DNA of 63,936 nucleotides, the filler included, from Globobulimina sp. (Eukaryota), in assembly GCA_003354225.1 (NCBI GenBank). It is 54 parts of 54 records of this genome, joined end to end, with 100 filler letters (N's around TTAATTAATTAA, not from the genome) between each part and the next. Parts side by side here need not be neighbours in the genome. Positions count along the whole stretch, not along the records: positions 40,334 to 41,419 come from PIVH01023928.1; 53 more parts are not named here. One strand, given 5' to 3'. The position numbers and the translations under genes are program-made. Positions 39,478 through 61,566 of this stretch are shown one piece after another. Each line of letters begins with the position of its first letter. Position 1 is the first letter of the stretch. Below the pieces are notes generated by a model. It was not told the DNA's origin. It was given only the letters and a program-made list of their open reading frames with translations, and searched no databases.

Positions 39478-39720
39478 CAAAAAAATATTTTCGACTTTAT
39501 TCCTGAAAATAATATCGTTTGTACAGTTTTTTATGCTGATTTCAAAAATGTATACCATTTTCCTCATATCTGAATAGCTGACTCACTACGGTTGCTCAAA
39601 TCCAGCCAGGTTCGTGACCACAAAAAAATTTTTTTTCGACTTTAGTCATGAAAATTAAGTGTTTTGCTCAGTTTTTCATGCTGATTTCAAAAATACATAC
39701 CATTTTCTCTATATCTCATG
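39478..39720 (+). repeat. Diverged ~90-bp direct repeat pair (transposon-derived-like)
   Basis: TTTTCGACTTTA.TC.TGAAAAT...TTTT.ATGCTGATTTCAAAAAT..ATACCATTTTC..ATATCT at ~39480-39570 and ~39625-39720. Confidence 0.75.
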
Positions 39721-39957
39721 TACCGACACACTACATCCTCTCAAAGTCAACAAAAGTCGTATTTCAAAATTAACAAAGACCCGTAGTTCTTGTAGAGCAA
39801 AACTATCAGAAAACGCTCCAAACTGCTCAATATCATTGCATTGTTAGGCAACATTTCATTGCGCATCGAATGATGCATACGCCAGGTATTCAAGACGCTC
39901 CATTGCCGAGATATTGGGTCTCGAAACGAAAATGACCAAAAATTTGGCATTCTGCCA

Positions 39958-40233
39958 AATAAATAAATTTTATGATAAAAAGTACTTTCCTGGGGTAATT
40001 TTTAGCGTAGAATGCATTTTTGACACTCCCTAAGCCCGTCTGCATCAGCATAAGGTATAAACGAAGGGTCAAACACAATTCGATCTTCTGCGATGGCAGG
40101 GTCCATACCGACATGTATCTTACTCCTCATTTATGCTTTATGCTGATGCAGACGTGCTTTTGAAGTGTCAAAAATGCATTCTACGCTAAAAATTACCCCA
40201 GGAAAGTACTTTTTATCATAAAATTTATTTATT
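39958..40233. repeat. Long inverted repeat (fold-back/MITE-like)
   Basis: 70-bp perfect arms 39958-40027 / 40164-40233, extended inward by ~38 bp imperfect arms around a ~60-bp loop. Confidence 0.9.
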
Positions 40234-40610
40234 NNNNNNNNNNNNNNNNNNNNNNNNNNNNNNNNNNNNNNNNNNNNTTAATTAATTAANNNNNNNNNNN
40301 NNNNNNNNNNNNNNNNNNNNNNNNNNNNNNNNNCCAAAAAAAATGACCATACAGTGATTTTGCCATAATTTATAATGTTCATATTTATGGTTTCGCACTT
40401 TTTGATTAGTTTCATGGGAAAAATCTATCACAAAACAAAACAACACAAAACAGATAATATATTGATGACTCGATGACATTAAAATACGAACGAGATCGAC
40501 ATGCAACGATCAATGACATTAACTCAAAGTCCAAAGCTTTTTTAAGCTTCTCATCAAAAACAATGGATGCTGTCGGAGCGAAGCGACTCATCCATTGATA
40601 TAATGGCATT

Positions 40611-41050
40611 TATTAGTGTATTTATGGCGGCGACGAAGTCGCCTTATCGACTGATATAGAATTTATTATGGTAACCTATGGATATTATGGTATCTATGGC
40701 GGCGACGAAGTCGCCTTATCGGTTTCGCGAAACTGAATTTATTGTGGTATCTATGGCGGCGACGCAGTCGCCTTATCGATCGGTATATAATTTATTATGG
40801 TATAGAATTTATTGGTATATATGGCGGCGACGAAGTCGCCTCATTGATTGGTATATCGTATTTATTATGGTATCGATGCCAGCGACGTAGTCGCCTCATC
40901 GGTCGATATAGACTTATTATTGGCATCAGATTTTATTATGGTATCTATGGGCGGCGACGAAGTCGCCTCAACGGCTGATATTATTAATAAGACTTATTTT
41001 ATGGTATCTATTGGCGGCGACGAAGTCGCCCATCGGTCGAAACCGATTTA
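40611..41050 (+). repeat. Array of 7 hairpin-core repeats, consensus TTTATTATGGTATCTATGGCGGCGACGAAGTCGCCTYATCG, with variable linkers
   Basis: Cores start at 40629, 40701, 40758, 40826, 40881, 40953, 41016 (periods 72, 57, 68, 55, 72, 63). Confidence 0.92.
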
Positions 41051-41546
41051 TTTATTGTGATGATGGCTCATTGGAGCATCTTATTAAATAAGATTTGGGT
41101 TCAAATCCCAATCATCACATTTTCTGTTTTTTATTTTGTGATGCAGCCAATGTGTGTTTTATTATGTACAAGTTGTGTTTTTCGTTTCTATTTTACTACC
41201 TCTAGGGCTTTTGTAAGCTCACGTTCGTTAAAAATAAAACAGTTTTACTGGCGTTTTTTTTGGTAAAATTTAATATTAATTTTAATTAATTTTAATGGAT
41301 ATTATATTTTGGAATTGTTAATTTTAAGCACCTTTTGCCCCTCATTATGCGTCCAAGGACATAGTGGTTGGTATCACGGCCGACAGCAATGCCTAATTCA
41401 TTTAATTGGTGAGCCATTCNNNNNNNNNNNNNNNNNNNNNNNNNNNNNNNNNNNNNNNNNNNNTTAATTAATTAANNNNNNNNNNNNNNNNNNNNNNNNN
41501 NNNNNNNNNNNNNNNNNNNAAACTCAAATAAATCTTTTTTCACTAG

Positions 41547-42605
41547 ATGAGAACATGGCAGCTAGCACAACAACACAACCCAATATCGCCACACGGCAAC
41601 AACTTATCGAAGCTGAAAGGAGCACTCGGTGTGTCATTGTTTGCCATATACTGTTCAATGGACCAAACAATCGACGTCCAAAAAACCAGGAAACTCGCTC
41701 AACAAAAAAGAAATGAACGAAAAGATGCATTTTTATCAGCACAAAAACAATTATTAAAAACAACCGAATATATTCAACAATTAGACAAAGTTAATACATT
41801 CCAACATATCCTTATAAATATTTACATATTGAACCCATACTATTTTAGTTATCGCATACATTGACAGAAGACATCGACGATACATATAATTTATTAAACA
41901 ATGCCACAATCACAAATATGACACATCATTTCTCGGAAGACATCAATAAATTCAATAAAAAGAATGCAAATCACGACTATAATGGATATATAATCGACCC
42001 CTTAATACAGTCATTTGATTCGATTAATTCAGGAAACAGCTTTTGTAATGACACCTATTTAATGAATCACATTGACGTTCCATTCTTATCCCCAATCATA
42101 GACATACCGCTATTTATGAACAAAATACAATCTTGTCTTTATTCATCGCGTATATACATAAACAATACGGATATGGATCAGTTTGAAGAAGAGTATAAAC
42201 AGAAAACTTGCATATCTGTGGATGAATACTATTCATATTTGAGTGACAGAGAGCTACTCATTCAGAAATTGCTACATTTTATGCGAATTTATCCCAACAA
42301 AAACGATAAAAATCAGCAAACAATACATGAATACTACGAGAATATATTACCGTTTTGTTTGTATTGTTTGGTGATTATTTTATATCAAACCTCCATTCAT
42401 ATCAATGACATTAACAACGATGCGTTGTATAAATTATTCAGTGATTTTGTCATGAAATGCAAACAAGAAATCGAAGCAAATATTATTAAATCATTACAAT
42501 TCATGTCAGATAATCCATTTTTATTAATTCAATGCCTAAACAAATATATCAATTTATTCAACACCACCAATCCAATACAATTAAAATGGACAAATATGTT
42601 CAAAA
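41547..42605 (+). CDS. Hypothetical protein, two exons, N-terminal Cys motif and coiled coil
   Basis: RCVIVCHI.. region, coiled-coil exon, then 41861-42605 frame. Confidence 0.4.
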
Positions 42606-42718
42606 NNNNNNNNNNNNNNNNNNNNNNNNNNNNNNNNNNNNNNNNNNNNTTAATTAATTAANNNNNNNNNNNNNNNNNNNNNNNNNNNNNNNNNNNNNNN
42701 NNNNNAGGCACAGACTCA

Positions 42719-43791
42719 TTGCTTAAAGGTTTAGACCGCTATAAATCGACAAATACAGCGAGCTGTGATGATATGAACGACATTTTAAATCAAAGTAAAA
42801 GCTCGTTGAGCACTTTAGATACAAATCGCATTTTCGACGAAGTCAAAAGCAGCGGAAACGAGTTAAACACGGAAAGCGAGGCAGGGAGTACACATAAAAT
42901 GTTCCGTTTGCAAGAAATATTCCAAGCAAATAGAAAAAAGAGAGCGTGGAAGAAGGGGCAAAGGAATCCCTATTTACGACGCAAAACAAAGAGAATTAGA
43001 GCACAAAATAAGACAAAATCGAAGCGAAAGTGTGCGAAAATCCGGCAAAAATGTAAGATTATTTTGGAGGAAGAGGCGCTAAAAATAGCTCCGAAACAGA
43101 AACTACCCGAAATGGACAGTAATATTGTATTACATCCGGGTTTCGAGCAATTAGTTGCAAGGAGTCGCAATTTCGTAGTAAATCCGCGGTATTTTGATTT
43201 TAATAATATATTTATCGGACTTTTCAATCTGAAAAACAGTCTTCGGAGTTGGTATAATAATATTTACAACAAAGATAAGTTTGGGAAAAAGGAGGAGAAA
43301 AAAGAGGAGAAAAAGGAGGAGAAAAAGGAGGAGTACGACGACGAAAAGTGGAGCGATTGGAAGCCGTATCTGATAAATAAAAAAGAGAGACGGTATCTTT
43401 GTAAATCATCAAATAATATCAATTTAGAAGCATTTATTAAGCATTTTGAGTTAGCGCTGTATGAGCAATGCCAACATAAACAATTATCGTTAAATTACAA
43501 ATTAAATTTGACAGACATTGAAGAGGAGGCGTATATGGATTGTGTTGAGGAGGGATCAAAAAAAAAGGACCCGGAGAGGAGGGTTACAGTCAAAGAAGAT
43601 AAGGGATCATTATATATGATAACGACGGCAGGTCCGTTGAATAAAATGGTGCTTAAAACATTGATAAAATTAGGCTTTGAGGAGTTAGATAATTACGATT
43701 GGAATCACGAAATAGATATTTTGACGAAATTGCTGTCAAAATGGGTAGACGAAGGAGAGATAAAAGAAGCATGGTTTAAGGCGTTGCAACC
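42719..43791 (+). mobile_element. Penelope-like retroelement ORF, region N-terminal to the RT domain
   Basis: RNFVVNP..LKNSLR..LEAFIKHFE..NLTDIEEEA..VTVKEDKGSLYMI matches the PLE pattern (L.F.P ... NL...E..AL ... I...DKG...V); intronless. Confidence 0.65.
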
Positions 43792-43920
43792 NNNNNNNNN
43801 NNNNNNNNNNNNNNNNNNNNNNNNNNNNNNNNNNNTTAATTAATTAANNNNNNNNNNNNNNNNNNNNNNNNNNNNNNNNNNNNNNNNNNNNAAAGTGAGT
43901 TAATAATATTTGAGAAAGAT

Positions 43921-44313
43921 ATGCCAAATAAGATGATATTGACACCATTCTTATTTTCATTAATTAATATCTCGAAAATACAATTTATGGAGGAATATAT
44001 TTGGTGTTTAGATGATGAGCAATTTAAAGCATTGACAGTTGGACCAAAGGATAAATATATTGTATCACAACAAGAATTTTCTTATCAGATTGGAGCCACA
44101 AAAACAGTTAGATTTACAATTGGAATATGTAGAAGTTCAGCAGATAAATATACAGGATTCCAATTAAAAATTAAAAGTGTACCTTCCGCATCAGTTTCTG
44201 GACATTTTTGTATTGCTGTTGATGATGTAAATCATTTAGATAATAATAGGACATTTTATCGTTTACCGCTGGTAAATCAAAAAATATCTATTGTTTTGAG
44301 CAGATGTTATTGA
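43921..44313 (+). CDS. MATH/TRAF-like beta-sandwich fragment, possibly frameshifted near its end
   Basis: YIWCLDDEQF..FTIGICR..TGFQLKIKSVP..VSGHFCI. Confidence 0.35.
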   Translation: MPNKMILTPFLFSLINISKIQFMEEYIWCLDDEQFKALTVGPKDKYIVSQQEFSYQIGATKTVRFTIGICRSSADKYTGFQLKIKSVPSASVSGHFCIAVDDVNHLDNNRTFYRLPLVNQKISIVLSRCY

Positions 44314-55741: not shown

Positions 55742-56092
55742 TTCTTTCCTTATTTTACAATTTTGAGAGTTGCATCTTTGCGTAACATGCCTTAAATTAG
55801 ACCATTTATTATTACTTTTATTTTGATCTATATGATCGATAACATTTTCAGGAAAATATCCTTCCATATATAAAAATGCTAATCTATGGCCTCGATATGG
55901 AATATCATTAATATCAATTGAAATATATCCATCTGACCCTAAACATCCAGCAACCTTTTTAGCATATTTTGCATTCCAATTGCGACTATAATTATTAGTA
56001 AAATGATGAACAGGTCTTTCTTTCCATGTAAAAATTCCTGTTTCAGGATCATACAACAAACATTCTTTTAAGTGTTCTTGTGTTAATTTCAT
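55742..56092 (-). CDS. Phage-type HNH homing endonuclease (HNH_3), 3' truncated
   Basis: LTQEHLKECLLYDPETGIFTW, GYISIDI..YRGHRLAFLYMEG, IDHIDQNKSNNKWSNLRHVTQRCNSQN. Confidence 0.93.
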
Positions 56093-56820
56093 TAAATTTC
56101 TTCTTCAATATTTCCAAACAATGTAATATGTAATCTTTGGCTGTAATTATATTTCAATTGGACGCAAATGTCAAACAATTTCTGTTCAAATTCTAATTTT
56201 GATGGAGTCATTGGCATCAACCAAATTTTATTTTTTAAATATAAATCATCATTCCATTTAGAAATTTCTTTTAGATCACTAACAAAATTCTTTTTACTAA
56301 CAACAAATTTAAATATACTTTTTTCTTTTACTTTTAAAAATTTATAGGAAAGTTCATCATAATCCCAATTAACATTTGATGTTTTTAGTTTAGGTGAAAT
56401 GATAATATTATCAAAATTGTTAATAAAGAATTCTGTTTGTATATTTGTAAAATAAGGAAGATAAGCTCCATTTGTTTCAACTTCTAACTTAACACAATAC
56501 TTTTTACATAATGAAATTAAATATCTTAATGATTCAAAATCTAATGAAAAGGGTTCACCACCAGTAATAGTAATCATGTGAGGTTTATGTTCTTTTAAAT
56601 ATAATTTTATATCATCAATAGCTAAATTTTCATTGTAATTTTTTTTACAAATTGTATCACAGAAAGAACATACTTTTTTATTTGGAAAACAATTTTCTGT
56701 ATACAATCTTATAAAAGTTGTTGCTTGACCTGCATTAATACCTTCACCTTGAATTGTAGGGAAGATTGATACAAATTTTAATTTATCCGGCATATGAGGC
56801 ACATGCTCCTTCTGTTTCAT
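56092..56820 (-). CDS. queE: 7-carboxy-7-deazaguanine synthase QueE-like radical SAM enzyme, phage-like context
   Basis: IFPTIQGEGINAGQATTFIRL, C-x6-C-x2-CDT, ITITGGEP, VETNG, IISPKL, FKFVV, IWLMP, YSQRLHITLFG. Confidence 0.9.
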   Translation of the reverse strand: MKQKEHVPHMPDKLKFVSIFPTIQGEGINAGQATTFIRLYTENCFPNKKVCSFCDTICKKNYNENLAIDDIKLYLKEHKPHMITITGGEPFSLDFESLRYLISLCKKYCVKLEVETNGAYLPYFTNIQTEFFINNFDNIIISPKLKTSNVNWDYDELSYKFLKVKEKSIFKFVVSKKNFVSDLKEISKWNDDLYLKNKIWLMPMTPSKLEFEQKLFDICVQLKYNYSQRLHITLFGNIEEEI

Positions 56821-57186
56821 AAATTTNNNNNNNNNNNNNNNNNNNNNNNNNNNNNNNNNNNNNNNNNNNNTTAATTAATTAANNNNNNNNNNNNNNNNNN
56901 NNNNNNNNNNNNNNNNNNNNNNNNNNCATCCACTTTGCCTTTACAACACAACAACCAAATATCACAATTCATGCTGAAATGTATGACATTGAAAAAGTGC
57001 AAAGCGGGCATGATCTTCAAGACTGACTGAAAAGTTTTCAGTTAAAATCATCCGCCATGTCAATGCTTGCAAAGCGAGAACTGTTTCAAACTGACATTTT
57101 GCATTGATACATGCATGGAAATGTACACAAATGCATCACACGCAAAATCAGTTTGCAATTTCGAGCACAAAAAAAAATGAATATAC

Positions 57187-61290: not shown

Positions 61291-61566
61291 GCAACATGAT
61301 AGAAAACGGAATTGTATGATGTTGCAGTGCGAAATCAAACAATCCCAATACATTTACAGTTAAATTAATAGGTTTCTGTCATCAAAATGTATTGGGATTT
61401 GACTGTGTATGTTGGCAACATGATGGAAAATGGAATTGTATGATGTTGCGGTGCGAAATCAAACAATCCCAATACATTTACAGTTAAATTAATAGGTTTC
61501 TGTCATCAAAATGTATTGGGATTTGACTGTGTATGTTGGCAACATGTTGGAAAATGGAATTGTATG
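61291..61566 (+). repeat. 124-bp tandem repeat (2.2 copies, runs off contig) with internal inverted repeat
   Basis: Units start 61291, 61415, 61539; each has AATCCCAATACATTT ... AAATGTATTGGGATT. Confidence 0.92.

Follow-up and report, generated by a model that had tools for sequence, protein, structure and literature searches.

A tandem array of C-GNA-G hairpin units upstream of a tRNA-like element in a contig of a Globobulimina assembly

Among described systems, the short tandem repeats (STRs) associated with transfer RNA (tRNA) genes in Entamoeba appear closest in architecture, and the d(GCGNAGC) mini-hairpins closest in chemistry, to an array of seven hairpin units located at positions 40605-41049 on the plus strand of a 63,936-nt stretch of DNA (hereafter the window) from the Globobulimina sp. 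assembly GCA_003354225.1. In Entamoeba histolytica and E. dispar, STRs of unknown function lie between the tRNA genes of array units (PMC2652664). In the available portion of that report, the features shared with the present locus are an AT-rich protist genome in which complex short repeats stand directly beside small genes of the RNA polymerase III (Pol III) type, a repeat number and order that vary among copies and isolates with gene order kept, and a matching scale, since the 1223-nt tandem or circular unit of one related locus (L003) falls within the size range of the Entamoeba array units (0.5-1.8 kb). The Entamoeba arrangement differs, in the same portion of the source, in that the gene here is only tRNA-like, most copies are dispersed beside protein genes rather than set in long arrays, the lineage is another one, and the GC-rich C-GNA-G hairpin was not found described there for Entamoeba repeats. 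With the mini-hairpins, as far as the available text of their source goes, the array shares a GNA triloop closed by a C-G pair on a GC stem, one class of units containing the exact GCGAAGC heptamer and all four bases occurring at N (PMC13037366). The cases that this text describes are, however, single hairpins in the single-stranded DNA (ssDNA) origins of phages and plasmids and in phage N4 promoters, whereas here 2-12 units stand in tandem in what is taken to be a eukaryotic chromosome. Neither system is a home for the composite element: what it carries is a tRNA-like element rather than a tRNA gene, and it is not known to pass through an ssDNA stage. A second paper (PMC3201870) is listed on the same d(GCGNAGC) or C-GNA-G triloops.

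The array was delimited by pattern search and by repeat and hairpin analyses, and all features of the array and of the repeat that contains it are given on the plus strand. A search with the core pattern GGCGACGNAGTCGCC, allowing at most two mismatches, returned 13 matches in the window, namely seven plus-strand places and six reverse-strand echoes of the palindrome, against a chance expectation of 0.03; none of 100 shuffles attained 13 matches. The cores lie at 40629-40643, 40701-40715, 40758-40772, 40826-40840, 40881-40895, 40953-40967 and 41016-41030, and all are exact except the one at 40881, which has one mismatch. The original prediction of seven GGCGAC-GNA-GTCGCC cores was therefore borne out, as were the loops it reported (GAA in five units, GCA and GTA in one each), the closing C-G pair (seven of seven) and a period of 55-72 nt, with centre-to-centre distances of 72, 57, 68, 55, 72 and 63 nt; Tandem Repeats Finder reports overlapping arrays with periods of 55-68 over the same region. 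The predicted 6-bp stem holds in six of the seven units, but copy 5 (AGCGAC...GTCGCC) has an A.C outer pair and is left with 5 bp. Both additional hairpins that had been noticed in the linkers are present, CGGTTTC-GC-GAAACTG at 40719-40736 (one G.T pair, 92% complementary) and ATCGGT-CGAA-ACCGAT at 41032-41047, the latter with a counterpart, ATCGGT-TGAA-ACCGAT, in locus L001, and repeat comparisons agree on a partial relationship among the linkers. Conservation reaches beyond the hairpin to a block of about 36 nt (TGGTATCTATGG-C-GGCGAC-GNA-GTCGCC-TCATCG), and a degenerate hairpin with GC-GAA-GC at 40571-40591, which we term unit 0, precedes the array and has an equivalent (GCGAGC-GAA-GCTCGC) in L008. 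Folding of the whole array gives strong z-scores on both strands, which are uninformative because the repeats pair with each other. Mini-hairpins of the GCGNAGC kind are marked, as single strands, by extraordinary stability to heat and nucleases; for the unit hairpin, a nearest-neighbour DNA model lacking a term for the GNA loop gives much the same energy for the two strands (-6.1 and -6.5 kcal/mol).

In order to assess whether the fold is maintained, a census was taken of the hairpins in ten arrays (the window array and nine related loci) and of the first hairpin of L008, requiring at least four Watson-Crick pairs around a 3-nt loop, a requirement that biases the inner stem. Among the 72 hairpins so collected, 69 loops are GNA (GAA 48, GCA 16, GGA 4 and GTA 1, with AAA 2 and GTG 1 as the remainder) and 71 closing pairs are C-G, so that the units present the makings of a mini-hairpin, a C-G-closed GNA triloop on a GC stem. 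The stem measures 6 bp in 56 hairpins, 5 bp in 11 and 4 bp in 5, and reads GGCGGC/GCCGCC in 29, GGCGAC/GTCGCC in 25, AGCGGC/GCCGCT in one and GCGAGC/GCTCGC in one, the other 16 being shortened; about six more units are broken by deletions. The two main classes differ in the second stem pair, which is G-C in GGC-type and A-T in GAC-type units. In an alignment of 32 units the main helix is 98.2% paired, one of its pairs alternating between A-U (20 units) and G-C (11), and RNAalifold supports the short core helix and no extended stem, apart from an A-U outer pair in one unit of L006. An extended lower stem (TCTATGG/TCATCGA) was considered and set aside: it is 78.5% paired, but RNAalifold lends it no support and its register is lost in units of the GGC type. 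The middle base of the loop varies freely (A 50, C 16, G 4, T 2): at least six changes have taken place there and two at the flanking loop bases, which fits a G.A-closed triloop on the plus strand but also the free centre of any palindrome. The original prediction that structure is kept up, beyond sequence alone, is partly supported. The window array itself shows no compensatory change and one change (copy 5) that is uncompensated; across the ten arrays, C-GNA-G does persist on four stem sequences. The paired changes between arrays comprise one double substitution (AGCGGC/GCCGCT), one symmetric insertion (GCGAGC/GCTCGC) and the switch between the GAC/GTC and GGC/GCC classes, which could alternatively have arisen by a 3-nt deletion plus one transition, since GGC precedes GGCGAC. 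Judged from these comparisons, hairpin potential on the strand of the tRNA-like element is a preserved property of the family, and the case for selection on the fold is suggestive rather than proven, because the events are few (two or three) among kindred units, about six of which are broken.

Copies beyond the window were sought with unit patterns in several collections. A scan of metagenomes returned seven loci, four of them AT-rich contigs with arrays and three GC-rich bacterial chance matches, and among prokaryote genome records the scan picked out four short contigs, AT-rich and with arrays, in a metagenome-assembled genome (MAG) labelled Gammaproteobacteria (record G001). This record holds eight copies of the tRNA-like element, five with an upstream array and three solo, and adds the array of L017; searching it with the entire 1086-nt piece that carries the window array yielded no further copies, and two patterns run against viral contigs found none. 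The ten arrays share one architecture, with 5' box, tRNA-like element and 3' module aligning, and the composite runs in the order 5' box (..TTTCATGGG..CATCAAAAACAATGGATGC), unit 0, array, tRNA-like element of 63-65 nt, T-run and 3' hairpin module ending in GGCG(T)n. The tRNA-like element is the array's most consistent partner: it follows the last stem by 12-64 nt in nine of the ten arrays (truncated in L007), while in L001 it stands directly upstream, followed by five units and then T10, and in all ten arrays the strand that reads GNA is its sense strand. The arrays hold 7, 5, 8, 8, 2, 9 (plus unit 0), 6, 12, 11 and 3 units with periods of 28-99 nt. L008 alternates GGCGAC and GGCGGC units, higher-order periodicity is seen in L003, L010 and L011, and the window and L001 arrays have a common unit order and different flanks. 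This picture of 2-12 head-to-tail units, array-specific unit classes and mixed arrays is that of a minisatellite, the comparison being one between copies and not between alleles.

The surroundings of the copies differ. A calcineurin A-like open reading frame (ORF), matching solved calcineurin structures with E ~1e-104, lies about 100 nt downstream of the composite on the same strand in L007, another same-strand ORF about 55 nt downstream of the element in L011, and a gene end upstream of the composite in L008; in L003 (1342 nt), nucleotides 1-119 and 1224-1342 are identical, placing the composite on a circular or tandem path of 1223 nt. Because flanks differ between copies and include the calcineurin A-like ORF, the family is judged from its sequence context to be eukaryotic, nuclear and dispersed, and the array to be a variable tandem repeat within a non-coding repeat family of about 1 kb whose host is probably foraminiferal. 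A malate dehydrogenase encoded on another piece of the window is 89% identical to the Nonionella stella protein, with Bolivina, Ammonia and Elphidium next, so that the host would be a foraminifer if all pieces come from one organism; a protein-atlas comparison of a piece with an RdRP pointed to no useful taxon. When a translated ORF of the array was compared with 5.8 billion predicted proteins, a single match was obtained (P0121) and none came from transcriptome-derived sources. That match is itself another array, with four units of the GGDEVASS type and a frame that stays open for about 60 residues past the array, so that its locus, as far as a protein alone can tell, would have no tRNA-like element directly after the array. 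A literature search found no report of these sequences or of such a repeat and, to our knowledge, foraminiferal nuclear genomes have barely been described.

Several observations concern the MAG and its solo or unusual copies. Loci L008-L011, L014 and L017-L019 of record G001, the 3.1-Mb gammaproteobacterial MAG, are short and AT-rich (32-41% GC), bear gene fragments and repeats of eukaryotic type, and are probably mis-binned host DNA. At 45-477 of L018, five copies of a different repeat, GTGGCAATCCACAGCCAC, which forms an imperfect GTGGC...GCCAC palindrome, stand upstream of a solo 74-nt variant of the tRNA-like element, and on the reverse strand of L017 (about 100-325) a G-rich minisatellite (GGAGGAGGTGGATGTG-like) comes directly before the three-unit hairpin array. 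A further solo tRNA-like element, at 700-820 of L014, follows immediately after the apparent end of a kinase-like coding sequence on the same strand.

In the window, the tRNA-like element occupies 41057-41119 (63 nt), beginning 26 nt past the last stem of the array, and had escaped the original prediction. It is not a canonical tRNA, but folds into a cloverleaf with the anticodon loop ATTAAAT (UAA) and A73. In a local search by E-value it matches the Rfam tRNA model with 41 bits (E 5e-07; gathering score 29), and the L001 copy reaches 36.4 bits, the L003 and L006 copies being unmatched at E <= 0.1; a run at Rfam gathering thresholds over the whole window returned no match. ARAGORN in standard mode calls no tRNA in the window and four loci, and with the -mt option it reports an mtRNA-Leu(taa) for the copies of the window, L003 and L006. 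The stems comprise 7 bp (acceptor), 4 bp (D), 5 bp (anticodon) and 5 bp (T), with a D loop of 4-5 nt and a variable region of 0-1 nt; over 12 copies the T loop reads TTCAAAT in five, contains TCC or TCT in six and has a deletion in one. A Leu anticodon without the long extra arm sets the element apart from standard tRNA genes. Across the same 12 copies, 97.2% of the aligned cells are paired, one-sided A-to-G changes in the acceptor stem yield G.U pairs, and the D stem of the L014 copy carries a compensated double change from C-G to U-A (T-A in DNA). Derivation of the hairpin unit from the tRNA-like element, either as its decayed 5' third or as the 3' half of a tRNA on the minus strand (...GATACCA), was considered and dropped, the resemblance being weak.

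The remaining modules of the composite can be delimited by alignment of the copies. The 5' module spans 40334-40570, is truncated by the contig start and aligns with L003, L006 and L008-L011; its motifs TTTCATGGGAAAAA and CAAAAACAATGGATGC lie at 40410-40423 and 40555-40570, and the 5' box occurs once in the whole window. By blastn, L003:402-1182 aligns with window positions 40372-41135 at 72% identity. Directly 3' of the tRNA-like element, a T-rich run resembling a Pol III terminator (TTTTCTGTTTTTTATTTT, 41120-41137) is found, as it is in other loci, and the 3' module at 41164-41261, defined from an alignment of eight copies, consists of TTTTCGTTTCTATTTTA (41179-41195; one occurrence in the window), an imperfect hairpin and ACTGGCG + T8 (41250-41261). 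The last of these probably marks the 3' end of the composite repeat, and in six copies the 3' end reads GGCG followed by T-rich sequence.

Positions in the window have to be read with its construction in mind. It consists of 54 contig pieces of 1087, 1086 or 1085 nt in descending order of length, joined by 53 identical spacers of the six-frame-stop type (N44-TTAATTAATTAA-N44); neighbouring pieces carry no synteny, and ORFs that seem to cross the N blocks are artefacts. The genuine context of the hairpin array is piece 40334-41419 only (1086 nt), and the "eukaryote-like contig" of the original prediction is thus of that length rather than 64 kb. Apparent flanks of the array, an inverted repeat at 39958-40233 and ORFs at 41849-44310, were rejected as such, since they belong to other pieces. 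A Pfam search of 40 window ORFs found no Rep, reverse transcriptase, transposase or Cas domain, but these ORFs sit on unrelated contigs and are uninformative for the array, as is an ORF on a different piece (42707-43792) for which no homologue was found; because the array contig measures only 1086 nt, the absence of cas or Rep nearby carries no weight.

The copy status of the piece was examined by placing on it contigs from four public runs, out of five listed from two studies (321 contigs at a fit of at least 80% for run X1). Summed depth in X1 was 34 over the flank at 41296-41419, 1217 and 1725 in two bins of hairpin units and 23154 over the 3' half of the tRNA-like element. Positions 41264-41419 (no strand assigned) form a low-copy contig flank of even depth in all runs, at 34-39 (X1), 36.7 (X2), 21-22.9 (X3) and 24.6 (X5), and relative depth over the tRNA-like element was ~680x in X1, 2.3x in X2, 0.7x in X3 and 11x in X5. 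The repeat is multi-copy, and no copy number was derived because these ratios vary widely across runs. Contigs of X1 supplied three additional joins of unit to tRNA-like element and GGCGGC-GAA-GCCGCC variants between joints. Contigs of X2 and X5 cover the piece only from 41264, and one X2 contig continues upstream into unlike sequence, a boundary consistent with the element ending near 41261-41263 and, possibly, with an empty site.

Taken together, these data are read here, with about an even chance of being right, as a minisatellite with a hairpin core, whose units are produced and kept alike by slippage on the 5' side of a tRNA-like module of the Pol III type. Units would arise and be homogenised by replication slippage and unequal exchange upstream of the tRNA-like element, with the stable C-GNA-G mini-hairpin promoting slippage when single-stranded, and quasi-palindrome correction or weak selection may preserve complementarity between the arms as stem sequences drift. 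The hairpin would in this way account for the propagation of the repeat, and a function in cis (promoter-proximal, leader or boundary) is possible without being required. The junction TATTTATT(A/G)T|G is identical in joins between units and in joins between a unit and the tRNA-like element, and the 5' flanks of the module seem prone to tandem repeats in general, because other such repeats precede the tRNA-like element in L017 and L018. Several points nevertheless weigh against slippage as the whole account. The outer loop bases are near-invariant (G in 70 of 72, A in 71 of 72) while the middle base is free, and the arms stay complementary through a stem switch, a double substitution and a symmetric insertion, which exceeds the order expected of a neutral minisatellite and speaks for one strand being under constraint. 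In both unit classes conservation also extends to 12 nt on the 5' side and 6 nt on the 3' side of the hairpin, suggesting, as judged from the alignment, a sequence-specific reader. L007 and L011, the two contigs in which a downstream ORF is clear, have the element ending about 55-110 nt ahead of that same-strand ORF, an arrangement compatible with regulation. That slippage would occur at a Pol III-bound site is, moreover, a notion carried over from yeast biology.

The constancy of the tRNA-like partner would also be accounted for if the array were transcribed from the plus strand as a leader or non-coding RNA, with RNase P cleavage at the tRNA-like element making the 3' end and the hairpins binding proteins or stabilising the transcript, an explanation that we consider possible but unlikely. 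RNase P cleavage at a tRNA-like element has a precedent in MALAT1/mascRNA, and units of tRNA and hairpin are known from murid herpesvirus 68, in whose style the array of L001 would be transcribed downstream of a tRNA-like promoter. Co-orientation in ten of ten arrays and near adjacency in nine of ten speak for such a transcript, as do the T-run behind the tRNA-like element, the L001 order with its closing T10, and a cloverleaf kept through G.U changes and the double change in the D stem. Like the tRNA-like elements of MALAT1 (mascRNA) and MEN-beta, the element is a compact cloverleaf lacking a functional anticodon arm, set behind a co-oriented non-coding stretch and before a T-run; its match to the Rfam mascRNA model, however, is weak (27.1 bits, under the gathering score of 42.5), and three of the eight G001 copies are solo. 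The hairpins themselves fit RNA poorly: stems of 4-6 bp with a triloop are too short for Dicer-type processing, RNAalifold sees the core helix alone, the RNA version of the GNA triloop is probably much weaker than the DNA form, and the translated array ORF matched one of 5.8 billion predicted proteins, with no match from the transcriptome-derived sources. The stability of the C-G-closed GNA triloop is likewise noted for DNA in the available text of its source (PMC13037366). If the palindrome is instead read as double-stranded DNA, the array could be a series of protein-binding sites (promoter, insulator or boundary), recognised by a dimeric reader and placed ahead of genes or ahead of the Pol III module. 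The ~36-nt block common to both unit classes, the free middle base of an odd palindrome, as expected of a dimer site, and the location of the composite just upstream of same-strand ORFs in L007 and L011 agree with this, and GGC-type units contain AGCCGCC, the GCC-box core bound by AP2/ERF proteins. A symmetric dimer site leaves unexplained, however, why the loop is conserved as asymmetric G..A and not G..C, and stems that vary with complementarity kept run counter to what a protein reading the bases would allow; we also know of no candidate protein for the unit, and this explanation is held to be improbable.

The strand-specific loop and the exact GCGAAGC heptamer of GGC-type units recall the ssDNA signals of mobile or episomal elements (an HUH or rolling-circle substrate, a Helitron-like element or a priming site), an origin that the original prediction had proposed and that is here rated as very improbable. 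Helitrons begin with TC, end in CTRR, carry a hairpin 10-12 nt ahead of that 3' terminus and can bear tandem repeats. The composite resembles them as a GC-rich palindrome with internal tandem repeats in an AT-rich, non-coding, mobile-looking repeat, but its 3' end is GGCG(T)n, GGCG(T)8 in the window, rather than CTRR, and its hairpins are internal and tandem rather than subterminal, so that the HUH substrate is not supported. In favour of an ssDNA stage, C-GNA-G mini-hairpins act, according to the available portion of the source, in phage G4-type origins, RSF1010 ssiA and phage N4 promoters (PMC13037366). The exact 119-nt terminal redundancy of L003 would put the whole composite on a 1223-nt circular or tandem path, the composite lies beside different genes and must therefore have moved or been copied, and the X2 contig that crosses the presumed 3' end at 41264 into unrelated sequence may show an empty site. 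Against it, a terminal redundancy of assembler-word length is also expected from tandem duplication, the viral contigs searched with the two patterns hold no copy, and no Rep or helicase, reverse transcriptase or transposase is linked to any copy, a weak argument as all contigs measure 0.6-2.3 kb. The broader proposition that the arrays are working single-strand signals with an adjacent Pol III module, used either for processing or protein loading on a transcript or, with the 1223-nt path of L003 as the unit, for priming or nicking the ssDNA of a small element that is mobile or episomal, is likewise a long shot. Least credible of all, to the point of being nearly negligible, is that the array represents clustered regularly interspaced short palindromic repeats (CRISPR), a repeat that encodes a peptide, or mitochondrial DNA copied into the nucleus with a GC-hairpin-rich spacer and a mitochondrial tRNA-Leu. 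The regular alternation of repeat and spacer, the three partly open plus-strand frames and the mtRNA-Leu(taa) call of ARAGORN might suggest one or the other. The spacers, however, measure 10-35 nt, are unequal in length and related to each other, and a related array shares its contig with the eukaryotic calcineurin A-like gene, in keeping with the earlier view that this is not a standard CRISPR; a coding repeat, which that view had named as a possible refutation, was looked for and not found, the periods not all being multiples of three and stops interrupting every frame (4-5 per plus frame and 9-12 per minus frame over the array). Foraminiferal and radiolarian mitochondrial genomes are described, in the available text of PMC10127745, as lacking tRNA genes, which speaks against the tRNA-like element being mitochondrial in origin if the host is a foraminifer.

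If the arrays are only a slippage minisatellite beside a Pol III-type pseudo-tRNA, the outcome is tidy and one of ordinary repeat dynamics; if they were to prove working single-strand signals, they would give a eukaryote, a foraminifer, its own counterpart to the mini-hairpin origins and promoters of phages and plasmids. Either way, tens of C-GNA-G hairpins that keep loop and closing pair despite stem change make the family a compact natural test case for the formation and relevance of DNA mini-hairpins in a eukaryotic chromosome. The family also offers a marker for host DNA mis-binned into bacterial genomes, and the array is likely a hypervariable locus for typing individuals.

Other pieces of the window carry features of their own. 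One holds an inverted repeat at 39958-40233, with 125-nt arms that are 89% complementary and 26 nt apart, resembling a foldback or a miniature inverted-repeat transposable element, together with a 137-nt direct repeat at 39479-39760. On another piece (55742-56826, 25% GC), an HNH_3 endonuclease ORF adjoins a radical-SAM (Fer4_12) ORF, a phage- or giant-virus-like pairing among pieces of eukaryotic type. Finally, a 124-nt tandem repeat with 2.2 copies that are 97% identical is located at 61291-61566.

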